Below are positions 6,024 to 19,395 of a stretch of 32,000 nucleotides of DNA, piece by piece. The translations under genes and the position numbers were made by a program. Position 1 is the stretch's first letter; each line of letters starts with the position of its first letter. Source of the DNA: Candidatus Saccharimonadota bacterium (GTDB taxonomy: Bacteria > Pseudomonadota > Alphaproteobacteria > CAJXXZ01 > 1604HC); assembly GCF_008189405.1 (NCBI RefSeq), contig NZ_CP043316.1, positions 450,001 to 482,000 of the forward strand. The letters run 5' to 3'. The notes beneath the pieces are model-generated. The model ran no database searches and was not told the DNA's origin. It saw nothing but the letters and a program-made list of their open reading frames with translations.

Positions 6024-7064
6024 TTATATTGCTGAAAGAATATAGTTAGGATTTGCAAAGTCATTAAATGCTTTATCACAAAATGTCATTAGATATCGAT
6101 TTCTAATCCCATTATTGATAAATGGCATATTATATTTAATACTTGTTCCAAAATTTAATTTACCCCTATTATATGCATGCACTCCAACTACAGAATGATC
6201 CCCTGCTAACATATTATAGCACATCCACTGCTTCCTGATTCTGTATCTGCTGTATGGCATAATATTATTATATTCTGTCGCTTCACCATAAGACACACTT
6301 TTATATCTACCTCTAGGACAACTAGAAGTTCTTATCTTTCCAAGTGTATGACTTGTACTTAGTTTCAAAAAATTATTTTGTGGATGATCAGCAAATAGCA
6401 ATGCTATATCATGCTTTTCATTTTCCATCCATTTTGGATGAATATAATAATAATTCAACCTAAAAGATTCAAGTTTAAATTTTTCATATTTAATAAGATA
6501 ATAATCATTAATATAGTTTAATAACACATATATCGATTCTGTAATATCAATTCCAAAAATTATTTTTTTAGTTAATAGCCATGAATTTATAGGTTTCATA
6601 ATATCATATCCTAAAACATCAAGCTTAAACTCAGTACTATCTAGTGATTGCTTATAATAACATACATTAGAGGCTGCATTATTTTGACTATACAAATTAT
6701 GCCCTGCAATCATAATCATAGTTTGATTAATAAAAAACCCACTGCCATTATAATACATATTTTCTATATTTTCTGAATAATCTTTATATTCCATTAATAA
6801 TCTTACACAAGCTGAATCTGGCAATTCATTTGATTGATCAGCGTTAAGAATATGAAATGCATCTTCAATTGGTTTCCCAGATAAGATCGCTTGTAAGCTT
6901 CTAACTTCTGAGCTATCTACATTTTTAACAGAATCATCAGAAAGAACAACTATATCACTGTGCACATTTGCATAACGATGTTCATTTACATTGCATAAAT
7001 CTGAAAACATACAATTTACATTGCATGAACCTAATAAACCACAAAACAGCAAACTAATATCCAC
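6024..7064 (-). CDS. divergent S1B-like protease paralog with a degenerate active site (possible pseudoprotease or decaying gene)
   Basis: It keeps family landmarks: LPDSACVRLLMEY, GSGFFINQTMIMIAGHNLY (His box) and HDIALLF (Asp box). The TLPGNSGSPI Ser box is replaced by NMLAGDHS just before VVGVHAY. There is a large insertion between the His and Asp boxes. The start is GTG, with no family SD/leader and no N-module. Confidence 0.5.
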   Translation of the reverse strand: MDISLLFCGLLGSCNVNCMFSDLCNVNEHRYANVHSDIVVLSDDSVKNVDSSEVRSLQAILSGKPIEDAFHILNADQSNELPDSACVRLLMEYKDYSENIENMYYNGSGFFINQTMIMIAGHNLYSQNNAASNVCYYKQSLDSTEFKLDVLGYDIMKPINSWLLTKKIIFGIDITESIYVLLNYINDYYLIKYEKFKLESFRLNYYYIHPKWMENEKHDIALLFADHPQNNFLKLSTSHTLGKIRTSSCPRGRYKSVSYGEATEYNNIMPYSRYRIRKQWMCYNMLAGDHSVVGVHAYNRGKLNFGTSIKYNMPFINNGIRNRYLMTFCDKAFNDFANPNYILSAI

Positions 7065-7163
7065 ATATATATTAAAACTATATTAACAACATATCAATCA
7101 TTGTTAAATGCAATTAAACAATACATAATTGATAAAGTATCAATCCTACTATTTTATTATTTG

Positions 7164-7481
7164 CTACCTATTCATATTATATTTTTCTATTAATCCCATA
7201 ATATAACCACTAATTCCTTTATATTGCATATTAACATCAGTGTTGCTTGTTTTGTTTGTGTAATAATACATATCTCTCTTTTTATCTAAAAATGGCCCTT
7301 CCCATTCACTTGGATTAAAAGTAAAAGGTGTGCTTTCAGCTGTGGGACCATTAATCTTTGGCATTGTAATATTCACGATCCCATCTTCACCTACATTTAC
7401 ATATTGGCTTTTGAATTGTCCATCATTAGTGCTATTTAAAACACATGTAATAAAACTAACACACATAAAAGTCTTACTCAT
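7164..7481 (-). CDS. family N-module-only protein (signal-like N-terminus plus EWEGPFLD module, no protease core)
   Basis: 105 aa: MSKTFMCVSFITCVL..., then YVNVGEDGIVNITMP...NPSEWEGPFLDKKRDMYYY. This matches the N-terminal ~100 aa of the proteases at 7769 and 18151. It has the family leader GTTTCTATAGGGGGGTAATATG. Confidence 0.65.
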   Translation of the reverse strand: MSKTFMCVSFITCVLNSTNDGQFKSQYVNVGEDGIVNITMPKINGPTAESTPFTFNPSEWEGPFLDKKRDMYYYTNKTSNTDVNMQYKGISGYIMGLIEKYNMNR

Positions 7482-7531
7482 ATTACCCCCCTATAGAAAC
7501 ATATTAGCTTCTATCCGGCATAATAGCATGA

Positions 7532-7730
7532 ATATTACATATATAACAACTAAATCACAAACCTATATGTATTATAGCAATATATATGATTACTGAATTA
7601 TATTATATATAAAATATTGATATTATGGCTAATTACATAATAAACATATATATATCAAAATACATAATAAACCCATATATATCAAAAGCATCATTGGTTA
7701 GTATTCACAAATCTATATATTCATAAAAAC
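7532..7730. repeat. dispersed repeat copy B (non-coding relic of the 5611-5796 segment)
   Basis: Shares the blocks quoted for copy A. Here the former coding part is out of frame and degenerate. Confidence 0.6.
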
Positions 7731-17412: not shown

Positions 17413-17484
17413 AAAAATATTATTGCATTAATTTATGATTTTTTAAAATGCAATTCAAACATCATGCAAAGCCACTGTTGTGAC

Positions 17485-18000
17485 TTAAGATATTCTTCGT
17501 CTTTTTGCATCTGATAATTGCTTGCCATCTATTTCATTTTTCAACTTGCTTACTTCATCTATAGTAAGTGTAGTCACTTCACTAATATCACCTATACTCA
17601 TAATATTCTTTATTAACATCTTTTTTGCAGTATTAATATCTGCTTGTTTTGCTGCATCATCCAAATCATTTTTAGTAAATGTTTTTTGCCCTTTGATATG
17701 TTTTGTAATCTCTGAATCGCGAGTGTCATTATTTGAATGTTCATCTTTTCTAACATAATAATAAGCGTCACGGTCTTTATCTAAAAATAGCCATTCCCAT
17801 TCTGCTGGATTTTCATAATAGACTTCAACTTTTTCAGGTTGAGAAAATTCAGGTGCTGTAATTTTAACAGTACCATCTGTACCAACACTTACATATTTAC
17901 CTTCAAATGGATGAGAATATGACTTATTTTCAGAATCACCTCCATGCAAAACACAGGTAATAAAACTCATACATAATAAAATCTTGTTAATATTCTCCAC
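17485..18000 (-). CDS. family protein with the protease core deleted in frame (N-module fused directly to the tail)
   Basis: 171 aa, collinear with both ends of 18151-19395: ...NNDTRDSEI|TKHIKGQKTFTKNDL... versus ...GNDTCGSETI...[protease]...YTKHIKVKAFTKSDL. It ends SDAKRRRIS. The canonical ATG is mutated (AATATTAAC versus AATATGAAT), leaving GTG 18000 or ATG 17970 as the start. Confidence 0.6.
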   Translation of the reverse strand: MENINKILLCMSFITCVLHGGDSENKSYSHPFEGKYVSVGTDGTVKITAPEFSQPEKVEVYYENPAEWEWLFLDKDRDAYYYVRKDEHSNNDTRDSEITKHIKGQKTFTKNDLDDAAKQADINTAKKMLIKNIMSIGDISEVTTLTIDEVSKLKNEIDGKQLSDAKRRRIS

Positions 18001-18150
18001 TTATAAAAGCATGATAACACAAATTATTCAAAATCCAATATTTCAGAAATAGCAAATAAATCACCTCTTACTTCAATTTATATCAATATTAAAACACATT
18101 ACTAATTAACCAACTATCAACCCTATATTTCATATATATGCTCTATGATG

Positions 18151-19395
18151 TTATATATATGAAACTTTTTGTTTTTTAGGGGCAGGGGCATCATTTGCAT
18201 TAATTTCTCTATTTCGATCTATTTCATCTTTCAATTTACTCACTTCATCTTTAGTTAATATTTTCACTGCTTGCATAATTACATCAATATTAATATCATT
18301 ATCCAGCAAATTTTTAGCCATATTAATTTCAGTTTTCTTTTCTGCATCACTTAAATCACTTTTAGTGAACGCTTTCACTTTTATATGTTTTGTATAATCT
18401 GGGTACACACCTCTATTATATTGATCTATACTTTCATTAATAAATTTAATAATGCTTTGCTTGATTCTTACACCTTTATTATATTCACTACCTTCAGATT
18501 TACCATTTGTATGAACACCTACTACAAAATCACCTTGTTTTTGTGAAATAATTGGACTCCCACTATTCCCTGGCAAAGTATTCACCTTATGTGAAACCTT
18601 TTCATCACAATCATACATAGCTTTTCCCTTTGCTTCATGCATTTTTTCATGTCCTGATGGATATCCAATAACTTTTACATCTTGTGCTTTAAAAGCCGTC
18701 TTTAATACTAATTGATTATCCATTGAATGAGGGAAGAATAGTAGCGCAATATCATAAGCACTATCTAATTTTTTTTCCCATTCTGGATGCATATAATAAT
18801 GTGTACAAGCAGGTCCAATTTGATTATTATGTGCTTGAAGTGCAAAATGTACTTTGCTAGCTGGAATATTACTATCAACTTCGTTCATATAATCAAATAC
18901 ATTATGAGCTGCAGTCATTACTATATTTTCATTAATTAAAAATCCAGTACCAGCATATTTCTTAGTTTTGTTATTCATTATATATTCCATCATCAATCTT
19001 CCACAACTAGAATATGGAGACTCATGTAATGCTTCAGATTTCACTGCATCAAATGCATGATTAATTGATGTTCCATCAATAATAGACTCATTTGTTTTTT
19101 CTTTTTGTTCTATAGTCTCTGAACCACAAGTGTCATTACCTGAATTTTCATTTTTTTTCACATAATAATAAGCATCACGGTGTTCATCTAAAAATGGTCC
19201 ATCCCAATCTTCTGGATTATGTATATATGTTTCATATTTTTCAATTTTAGGACCCTTTACACCTATAATTGTAACTGTTCCATCAGCTGCTGTTCTTGCA
19301 TATTCACCTTGAAAAGGTGAATCTGATGAAGATTCAGAATCACCTCCATGCAAAACACATGTAATCAAAGTCATACATAGTAAAATCTTATTCAT
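18151..19395 (-). CDS. secreted V8/S1B-like serine protease with N-module and a basic-ended C-terminal tail
   Basis: 414 aa. MNKILLCMTLITCVLHGG. NPEDWDGPFLDEHRDAYYY. SPYSSCGRLMMEY, GTGFLINENIVMTAAHNV, YDIALLFF, TLPGNSGSPII...VVGVHTNG. Tail MAKNLLDNDINIDVIMQAVKILTKDEVSKLKDEI...APAPKKQKVSYI. Confidence 0.85.
   Translation of the reverse strand: MNKILLCMTLITCVLHGGDSESSSDSPFQGEYARTAADGTVTIIGVKGPKIEKYETYIHNPEDWDGPFLDEHRDAYYYVKKNENSGNDTCGSETIEQKEKTNESIIDGTSINHAFDAVKSEALHESPYSSCGRLMMEYIMNNKTKKYAGTGFLINENIVMTAAHNVFDYMNEVDSNIPASKVHFALQAHNNQIGPACTHYYMHPEWEKKLDSAYDIALLFFPHSMDNQLVLKTAFKAQDVKVIGYPSGHEKMHEAKGKAMYDCDEKVSHKVNTLPGNSGSPIISQKQGDFVVGVHTNGKSEGSEYNKGVRIKQSIIKFINESIDQYNRGVYPDYTKHIKVKAFTKSDLSDAEKKTEINMAKNLLDNDINIDVIMQAVKILTKDEVSKLKDEIDRNREINANDAPAPKKQKVSYI

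Follow-up and report, generated by a model that had tools for sequence, protein, structure and literature searches.

The minus strand of the 32,000-bp stretch analysed here (the window, positions 450,001 to 482,000 of contig NZ_CP043316.1) carries, between positions 6024 and 19395, an array of eleven related open reading frames (ORFs) and pseudogenes together with one fragment. The family is centred on a serine protease core, and its members range from intact four-module proteases to core-less and decayed copies; public databases already list the proteins, annotated either as trypsin-like peptidases or as hypothetical. The product of the ORF at 18151-19395 is 100% identical to a protein of Candidatus Cytomitobacter primus that NCBI lists as 'trypsin-like serine peptidase'. 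This bacterium belongs to the Holosporaceae and is an endosymbiont of the marine diplonemid Diplonema japonicum, with a 622-kb (622,378-bp) genome of 30% GC. It lives in the cytoplasm of its host near the mitochondria, and possibly inside them. The array (~13 kb) accounts for 2.1% of the genome, and the GC content along the window is 23-35%. Used as tblastn queries against the window, the members match one another, and no relative of the family was found elsewhere in it. An initial annotation of the sequence had listed the same eleven elements, all of which are present on the minus strand where it placed them. It had also described the ~13 kb as filled by the family, which holds for the extent of the array but not for its exclusive occupation, as the D-Ala-D-Ala ligase gene ddl lies inside it.

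The members are named below by their lower window coordinate.

18151-19395, minus: 18151, intact four-module protease of 414 aa (Pfam, AlphaFold2 (AF2), Foldseek)
19342-19395, minus: predicted signal peptide of 18151
~19147-19317, minus: N-module of 18151
~19084-19146, minus: disordered linker of 18151
~18415-19083, minus: S1B core of 18151
18904-18906, 18751-18753 and 18562-18564, minus: codons of the triad residues His164, Asp215 and Ser278 of 18151
~18193-18363, minus: three-helix HTH_Rpn_C-like tail of 18151
18166-18177, minus: basic cluster KKQK of 18151
17485-17991, minus: 17485, core-less form with predicted signal peptide, N-module and a tail ending in KRRR
16325-16389, minus: orphan fragment, 3' end of a 14513-type gene (direct repeat D10, 75% identity with 14633-14697)
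15904-16258, minus: 15904, pseudogene of the 14513 subgroup, leader and ATG intact
15150-15749, minus: 15150, core-less, 199 aa from MNK, with leader, predicted signal peptide and degenerate N-hairpin
14513-15079, minus: 14513, core-less chimera, 188 aa from MNK (repeats D4 and D5)
12648-14333, minus: 12648, protease of 561 aa with predicted signal peptide and intact core, without N-module and without family leader
10966-12327, minus: 10966, intact four-module protease of 453 aa with a longer N-terminal region and a tail ending in KAKKK
9353-10796, minus: recent pseudogene of probable ancestral type, all modules and the triad readable
7769-8992, minus: 7769, intact four-module protease of 407 aa with a tail ending in KRQR
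7164-7481, minus: 7164, predicted signal peptide and N-module only, 105 aa, leader and ATG intact (family hidden Markov model (HMM) E 9e-17)
6024-7064, minus: 6024, degenerate core of 346 aa (family HMM E 1.6e-21, no Pfam match)
19396-19450, minus: family 5' leader, example with an 8-bp hairpin immediately 5' of the Shine-Dalgarno sequence
7482-7536, 8993-9040, 10797-10877, 12328-12409, 15080-15128, 15750-15803, 16259-16313 and 17992-18040, minus: homologous leaders (repeats D6, D14 and D15)
16417-17412, minus: ddl, not a family member (Pfam Dala_Dala_lig_C/N)
19570-20400, minus: murB, flanking the array (Pfam MurB_C)

The protease core and the modules around it

The modular build proposed by the initial annotation is real, four modules being visible in the alignment. 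A complete gene comprises a leader whose ribosome-binding site is strong, a predicted signal peptide, a β-rich N-module, a flexible linker, a His-Asp-Ser core and a three-helix tail, often followed by a cluster of Lys and Arg (K/R cluster). The Pfam models Trypsin_2 and Trypsin match 7769, 10966, 12648, 18151 and a fragment of the pseudogene (9597-10109) above their gathering scores. The core alignment displays the motifs PYxxCG(K/R)L, GSGFLI.KNIVMTAAHNV, YD(I/V)ALLF and TLPGNSG(S/G)PI…VGVHT, and hence the triad motifs TAAHNV, YD(I/V)ALLF and GNSG(S/G)P. The three catalytic residues (H164, D215 and S278 in 18151 numbering) are invariant across the six full-length proteases aligned; the triad is intact in 7769, 10966, 12648 and 18151, the four genes that had been called intact, and can still be read in the pseudogene 9353-10796.

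A profile built from the six full-length members was compared with the PDB. SplB comes first (1e-14), followed by glutamyl endopeptidases including V8 (2e-13 to 1e-12) and by exfoliative toxin A (4e-9), with further matches to SplA/D/E/F and exfoliative toxins, whereas proteases outside S1B score far lower in the same search (DegP-like 3e-7, trypsin-like 4e-4). The AF2 model of 18151 (mean predicted local distance difference test (pLDDT) 79.7, core 82-96) agrees with this ranking: Foldseek places it in the chymotrypsin fold with a probability of 1.00 and with target-normalised TM-scores of 0.72-0.76 to 1P3C, 6PYM and 1QY6. Its top matches in the PDB are the glutamyl endopeptidase of Bacillus intermedius (1P3C), the trypsin-like domain of the Gemella IgA1 protease, Esp, V8, exfoliative toxins and Spl. 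As had been proposed from the serine box, the core therefore belongs to the S1B (V8/Esp/Spl/exfoliative-toxin-like) proteases of chymotrypsin fold. In the alignment with V8, both the Thr located five residues before the catalytic Ser and the His of 'G(V/I)H' are kept, the 'sTtGGNSGSP' and 'GIH' of V8 corresponding to 'nTlPGNSGSP' and 'GVH' in the family. These two residues help to form the Glu-binding (S1) pocket of V8, and a Glu/Gln-type P1 preference is plausible for the family core.

The C-terminal module had been described as a helical tail of ~40 aa with a basic cluster. It is helical, but its identity had been missed: by sequence comparison, it is a three-helix domain of HTH_Rpn_C/RpnS type, homologous to the C-terminal domain of Rpn nucleases. 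The NCBIfam model TIGR01784, 'Rpn family recombination-promoting nuclease/putative transposase', matches the tails of the pseudogene (3.7e-6), of two relatives (1.7e-7 and 3e-5) and of 18151 (2.8e-3) over positions ~181-272 of its 273, i.e. the last ~90. As the tails correspond to the C-terminal domain only, these matches do not reach the cutoff set for the whole protein. The tail ORF of the pseudogene is labelled 'Rpn family…' in UniRef, a precomputed Pfam match to PF27070 (HTH_Rpn_C) exists for the relative P0021, and a profile of 12 tails retrieves RpnA_S (7TH0) as the top natural protein in the PDB (E 1.7e-4); direct structural comparison of the tail with 7TH0 by Foldseek is non-significant. 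The membership of 7769, 10966 and 17485 follows from the family alignment alone, and the tail of 10966 matches HTH_7 with an E of 3.6e-4. In the AF2 models, the helices span residues 345-365 (a long first helix), 370-376 and 382-401 of 18151 and residues 107-128, 133-139 and 144-167 of 17485 (pLDDT 86-94).

RpnS is a three-helix-bundle dimerisation domain that arises by separate translation from within rpn genes and inhibits the long, toxic form of Rpn; its helix 1 contains hypervariable four-residue repeats (e.g. KGIE), the number of which sets the pairing of long and short forms (Zhong et al., PMC10327210). KGIE-type four-residue repeats are also found in helix 1 of the family tails, in the pseudogene 9353-10796 (DKGIERGLKGGIEQ) and in the relatives L001 (EQGIEQGIEKGIEKGLQQGIEK), L002 (DKGIAQGITQGIAQ), L003, L006 and P0021. 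Their number ranges from 0 to ~5 among paralogues, and one difference between samples was found for the same gene, L001 having one repeat more than L004/L010. Length differences of 4-12 aa between L010 and L011 were considered as repeat variation and rejected, as the alignment shows that they come from differing gene-call starts. After the third helix, the proteins end in KKQK (18151), KRQR (7769) or KRRR (17485) and the metagenome relatives in KKRPREE or KKRAREEA. The basic cluster is absent from the ancestral-type members, namely the pseudogene tail, L002_9962, L003 and P0021.

At the other end of the proteins, all members except 6024 display the signal-like character that had been proposed, with an n-region charge of +1 to +4, then 11-14 uncharged residues with a mean Kyte-Doolittle value >2.3. 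These N-termini resemble Sec signals, and export is predicted. A lipoprotein reading was rejected, as no [AGS]-C lipobox was seen by eye at a suitable distance, apart from a poor one in 6024. The N-module that follows (~60-75 residues, five invariant positions) has a β-rich AF2 prediction, of moderate confidence in the full-length protein and of low confidence in a form lacking the core. It is followed in 18151 by a linker (residues 84-102) with pLDDT <50. The whole N-module is confined to the family: an exhaustive HMMER search of 1.84 billion representatives retrieved six window proteins, one protein from a 619-kb relative and two metagenome proteins, and all the matches from outside the window are full-length proteases of 425-491 aa. 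Kinship with β-trefoils was rejected, as the matches to fascin, FRG1 and ricin-type domains span only a recurrent hairpin of 17-30 residues and thus reflect a resemblance of motif. By analogy with V8, Esp and Spl, the N-module and linker would act as a pro-region.

Nine members share a 5' leader of ~65 nt that ends in …ATAGAAGCTATTATGTTTCTATAGGGGGGTAAT-ATG-AAT-AAA and includes a strong Shine-Dalgarno site; it is absent upstream of 6024 and 12648. RNAalifold folds an 8-bp hairpin (ATAGAAGC/GTTTCTAT) directly 5' of the ribosome-binding site. Over the nine sequences, 93% of cells are paired, compared to 45-61% with slid partners. Both partners differ in three of the pairs, G·U changes account for most of the maintenance of the pairing, and values at the observed level arise in 13 of 500 shuffles. 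These data lend modest support to conservation of the hairpin, which may control translation. The relatives L001-L006 carry different leaders, those of L002 sharing a promoter-like block, TTGACA…TATAAA. Scans for promoters and terminators were uninformative in this 30% GC DNA (104 promoter-like sites compared to 98 expected).

Recombination, decay and genomic setting

Duplication and decay are ongoing in the array, as the initial annotation had stated. Tracts of 92-96% nucleotide identity join the 5' ends and leaders of the pseudogene and 10966, the 5' parts of 14513 and 15904, and the 3' parts of 14513 and 15150. For the pseudogene 9353-10796, the 5' 277 nt and the leader are 95-96% identical to those of 10966 (repeats D1 and D15), which points to gene conversion. 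This pseudogene had been reported to carry a nonsense codon and a frameshift, and exactly two lesions were located: a TAA codon (10185-10187) and, near 9630-9650, a frameshift of 1 nt. Rescue of the frameshift by poly-A slippage is unlikely, the A-runs being 4-5 nt long. Because it is the window member most like the relatives, it is probably an ancestral-type copy that is now dying while the other copies have diverged.

Five ORFs lack the core. In 17485, an in-frame deletion of ~240 codons took it out, and the family HMM finds the two separate domains that had been reported, the N-module (E 4.6e-21) and the tail (E 2.7e-8). The codon at the family start of 17485 is ATT, compared to ATG in all paralogues, and the listed GTG start falls inside the Shine-Dalgarno sequence. 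The four others had all been described as consisting of the N-module only. This is right for 7164, whose last 20 residues may retain, according to the alignment, vestiges of the start and the end of the core. It is not right for 14513, 15150 and 15904, in which the likeness to the family is limited to leader, signal peptide and first β-hairpin, 'EYVTVADNGSLVIDAP' (family HMM E 0.002-0.02); the hairpin of 14513 matches 10966 with a BLASTP E of 1e-5 over 43 aa. The starts of 14513 and 15150 are internal MNK codons. As a chimera, 14513 shares 92% identity with 15904 in its 5' part and 96% with 15150 over its 3' 179 nt. In 15904, a 1-nt deletion in the signal peptide leads to a TGA after 13 codons, and the remaining ORF restarts at a TTG (16221). 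This pseudogene is 92% identical to 14863-15073 (repeat D4), and the exact 15904 ORF is not in the protein collection searched. The C-terminal part of 15150 occurs in C. primus alone and may hold a remnant of the core start (…GHKSTEAYMIDKNVLNSSSVN), at a suggestive E of 0.066. A dedicated search with the 14513 group gave no match outside C. primus.

Two members depart from the common plan while keeping a core. The degeneration of the serine box reported for 6024 is seen in the alignment: of the three catalytic motifs, those of His and Asp survive, whereas the Ser box has been lost. This ORF also lacks the N-module, the tail, the family leader and a basic n-region, and is either a pseudo-protease or a relic. 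In 12648, the core is followed by a C-terminal extension of ~280 aa (12648-13500) without any family match, which ends in a basic, histone-H1-like region of low complexity, rich in Lys, Ser, Thr and Pro and internally repeated (units of ~72 nt at 12881-12939 and 12953-13011, repeat D17).

The core-less and Ser-less ORFs look mostly like decay by-products, although some may still be made; the core-less ones are regarded as such because they are specific to C. primus and because two of the five, 15904 and 17485, carry lesions. The diversifying pressure previously proposed is not borne out. Per module, dN/dS is 0.38-0.57 in intact and core-less forms alike with dS of 0.5-1.2, and none exceeds 1; these values, computed from aligned modules, are rough and dS is near saturation. 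They would reflect weak purifying selection or a mixture of constraint and decay.

The family has relatives elsewhere, in one 619-kb genome and on several metagenome contigs. The 619-kb chromosome (OZ247489.1, labelled 'Rickettsiales MAG', here L002) carries four copies within 13 kb, one of them split. One of its genes, L002_11555/P0022 (11555-13030), has lost His, Asp and Ser while remaining a full-length ORF, and its N-module is duplicated. Two other full-length dead copies ('dead422'; L010 16284-17552 and L006 1267-2547) have TAARN in place of TAAHN, i.e. Arg in place of His. These dead copies hint at the maintenance of pseudo-proteases. The other relatives are found on contigs of ~33-35% GC from Joint Genome Institute and European Nucleotide Archive (ENA) metagenomes. 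On a 92.8-kb contig, the order is murA, three tandem full-length proteases, nusG-rplKAJL, a full-length His-to-Arg dead paralogue, another protease, rluD, an S8 peptidase and sheath genes of a type VI secretion system. All called genes in the relatives' arrays are full-length proteases or full-length dead paralogues; in one metagenome sample, a truncated ORF has arisen by simple truncation (L004_2691). Outside the symbiont lineage, the generic protease domain alone was matched, and the family is, by these sequence searches, restricted to this lineage.

The relatives' arrays occupy other housekeeping sites (murA/nusG-rplKAJL). Contigs L010-L012 (ENA ERZ937902, ERZ937908 and ERZ925086), which represent close kin of the diplonemid-symbiont lineage, come from rock-porewater and subsurface metagenomes, which suggests an unsampled protist host there; L010 and L011 are identical over all 16 genes compared. 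On L013 (3227-4140), small WGR-domain and TraD-like ORFs and an unannotated ORF of 1421 aa lie beside two family proteases.

In C. primus, the array is surrounded by housekeeping genes: accD, hda, an AI-2E transporter gene, pgsA, ndk, the RNase P RNA gene, ddl, murB and pnp. The genes murB and ddl are usually neighbours in the dcw cluster. Here ddl splits the family, 18151 and 17485 lying between ddl and murB, and ddl is followed by further family members, not by ftsQAZ. Directly upstream of murB and the array are two tandem genes for leucine-rich-repeat (LRR) proteins of >720 aa each (20796-23042 and 23050-25221, minus), and the proximity of this pair to the proteases suggests a local cluster of host-interaction genes. 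Farther along, a plus-strand locus (25304-28343) encodes an encapsulin family 2B shell protein with a cyclic-nucleotide-binding domain (NF041163, 406 bits, above cutoff) and then a class-V aminotransferase/cysteine desulfurase (579 aa) whose N-terminal extension is long; this encapsulin-cargo pair is complete despite the 622-kb endosymbiont genome. Two orphan ORFs of >400 aa (4392-5660, plus; 28456-29661, minus) have no match in Pfam or NCBIfam.

Proposed role, alternatives and known systems

The reading that we consider rather likely is that of a lineage-specific family of Sec-exported pre-pro S1B proteases of a diplonemid endosymbiont, with a dimerising tail of RpnS type and under birth-and-death evolution. 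These proteins are probably host-directed effectors. Their working can be pictured as follows. The protease would be exported by Sec and then probably passed onward by a reduced type II secretion system/type IV pilus (T2SS/T4P) machinery. The N-module and linker would form a pro-region requiring removal; the activity of S1B enzymes depends on precise processing of their N-terminus. The tail would make the enzyme dimeric, and its targets would be proteins of the diplonemid host. The array itself would grow by tandem duplication, unequal crossing-over and gene conversion and shrink by deletion and point lesions. As to the machinery, Cytomitobacter has been reported to encode many signal-peptide proteins and a reduced T2SS/T4P, these proteases not being mentioned (George et al.).

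Several points weigh against this picture. The signal-peptide calls come from simple heuristics of charge and hydropathy, and the crossing of the outer membrane is hypothetical. A structure search with the model of the N-module gave no match, and a prodomain role for this module is argued solely by analogy. The tails of the four intact genes match Rpn models weakly on their own (E 2.8e-3 or none), so that their homology is transitive, through the family alignment; KGIE-type repeats are absent from the four intact genes of the window and from 17485. Finally, a dN/dS of 0.4-0.6 would equally be expected of weakly constrained genes heading to loss.

Among the alternatives, the core-less forms 7164, 14513, 15150 and 17485 might be functional partners of the proteases, acting as detached prodomains in the manner of inhibitors, chaperones or decoys, with 17485 playing the part of RpnS and pairing with 18151. 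It is true that 7164, 14513 and 15150 retain leader, Shine-Dalgarno sequence, ATG and signal peptide, that the deletion in 17485 is in frame, keeps both accessory modules and leaves a helix 1 that aligns with that of 18151 without indels, and that dN/dS in the core-less modules (0.41-0.57) is the same as in intact genes. There is also a precedent, as short RpnS forms bind and block long RpnL forms through the same domain (PMC10327210). However, 15904 is frameshifted and 17485 has no ATG, the like dN/dS may predate the deletions, remnants of the core may persist in 7164 and 15150, and the 14513 group is an orphan of a single genome. Furthermore, the 1.84 billion representatives include no stand-alone N-module protein from outside C. 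primus, and the relatives' called genes are full-length, dead or not, L004_2691 illustrating how simple truncation yields a short ORF. A class of detached prodomains, which the initial annotation had offered as speculation, is thus unlikely. The idea of nucleomodulins, in which the HTH (helix-turn-helix)-like tail would bind DNA and the K-K/R-x-K/R cluster would import the protease or 17485 into the diplonemid nucleus, appears less likely still. K[KR]x[KR] does occur within the last 15 residues of 18151, 7769, 17485 and the relatives L001, L004, L005, L006 and L002_1702, with a per-protein shuffle probability of ~0.01-0.03, and 12648 has its histone-H1-like, K/P/S-rich end. The tail also has weak matches to HTH families (HTH_7 at 3.6e-4, KORA, RecQ-HTH, Wmk), and every one of its weak structural neighbours is a DNA-binding domain of HTH type. 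But these fold matches are all non-significant (E >1), the occurrences of the motif are non-independent since the proteins are related, Lys-rich proteins are expected from an AT-rich genome and the cluster is missing in the ancestral-type members listed above. Moreover, C. primus is reported in the cytoplasm and near or inside mitochondria, and the sole role known for the domain from experiments is protein-protein binding (PMC10327210).

A role on the bacterial side, in periplasmic quality control or in cytoplasmic defence, seems very improbable. Both trypsin-like domains and Rpn proteins are known in anti-phage systems, and models of PADLOC that contain a protease were matched (RT-Protease_XI at 1e-11 to 1e-12, LmuA at 9e-15, Avs1b), with weak NCBIfam matches to MarP and Avs1b; the tail domain itself derives from the Rpn toxin-antitoxin proteins directed against phages (PMC10327210). 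These matches nevertheless cover the generic protease domain only and are no better than those of Pfam Trypsin. Since no reverse transcriptase, LmuB, SMC, STAND NTPase or nuclease partner was found in or near the array in the window, membership of the RT-Protease UG class XI, Lamassu (LmuA-protease) or Avs1 systems was rejected. The signal-like N-termini are incompatible with cytoplasmic defence, the absence of PDZ domains is unlike HtrA/DegP, and rapid divergence, changes in copy number and pseudogenisation are unlike housekeeping proteases. A broader combination would join several of these ideas: a new class of endosymbiont effector in which an exported S1B protease has captured an RpnS oligomerisation domain, the length of helix 1 (0-5 repeats) in each paralogue deciding which protomers pair, 17485 hetero-dimerising with 18151 and restraining it as RpnS does RpnL, and the K/R cluster directing these complexes to nucleic acids or into the nucleus of the host. 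There is only a slim chance that all these parts hold jointly.

Genomes of 0.6 Mb retain little that is unneeded; the ~13-kb array of predicted exported proteases is therefore a strong candidate for dealings with the host, and, wedged at murB/ddl beside LRR proteins, would be a candidate route of the interaction between Cytomitobacter and the diplonemid. With the fusion of a protease to HTH_Rpn_C, the known uses of the RpnS domain are no longer limited to toxin-antitoxin pairs of nucleases. The array likewise illustrates clearly that birth-and-death evolution is still at work in a highly reduced genome, with duplication, gene conversion, in-frame domain deletion and pseudogenisation all on display. 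The literature searched holds no description of the family, the array, the N-module, the protease-HTH_Rpn_C fusion or the lineage restriction, and the Cytomitobacter genome papers searched do not mention these protease genes.

The closest known enzymes are the S1B proteases of Staphylococcus and Bacillus (V8/SspA, Esp, the B. intermedius glutamyl endopeptidase, SplA-F and exfoliative toxins). They have the same fold and subfamily, provide the best sequence and structure matches in the PDB, share the GNSGSP box and the Thr and His of the pocket, and are Sec-type pre-(pro-)enzymes. The spl genes likewise form a tandem array of paralogues. The identity with these enzymes is only 18-23%, the β-rich N-module of ~60 aa is found only in the family, the HTH_Rpn_C tail is missing from these enzymes, and the family occurs in an obligate alphaproteobacterial endosymbiont with a 622-kb genome. 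The tail resembles RpnS/HTH_Rpn_C (PF27070, the C-terminus of TIGR01784, 7TH0) in sequence, in its predicted three-helix bundle and, in the pseudogene and in relatives, in KGIE-type repeats, which the four intact window genes lack. It is fused to a predicted exported protease, whereas in Rpn the domain is fused to a PD-(D/E)XK nuclease, and the family has no sign of an internal start for a separate short form. The catalytically dead paralogues (6024, L002_11555/P0022 and the 'dead422' of L006 and L010) recall the inactivated protease paralogues of the scabies mite (SMIPPs; 3H7O), a structure of which ranks 46 among the Foldseek matches of the 18151 model; 6024 differs in being further reduced, with no leader, signal n-region, N-module or tail. 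Finally, the chlamydial CPAF is a case of an obligate intracellular bacterium that exports a protease into the host cytoplasm. The family, known here from its sequences, differs from effectors of this type in protease clan and family and in architecture, but would be like them in concept, and LRR genes of the kind involved in interactions with eukaryotes (20796-25221) are adjacent to its array.

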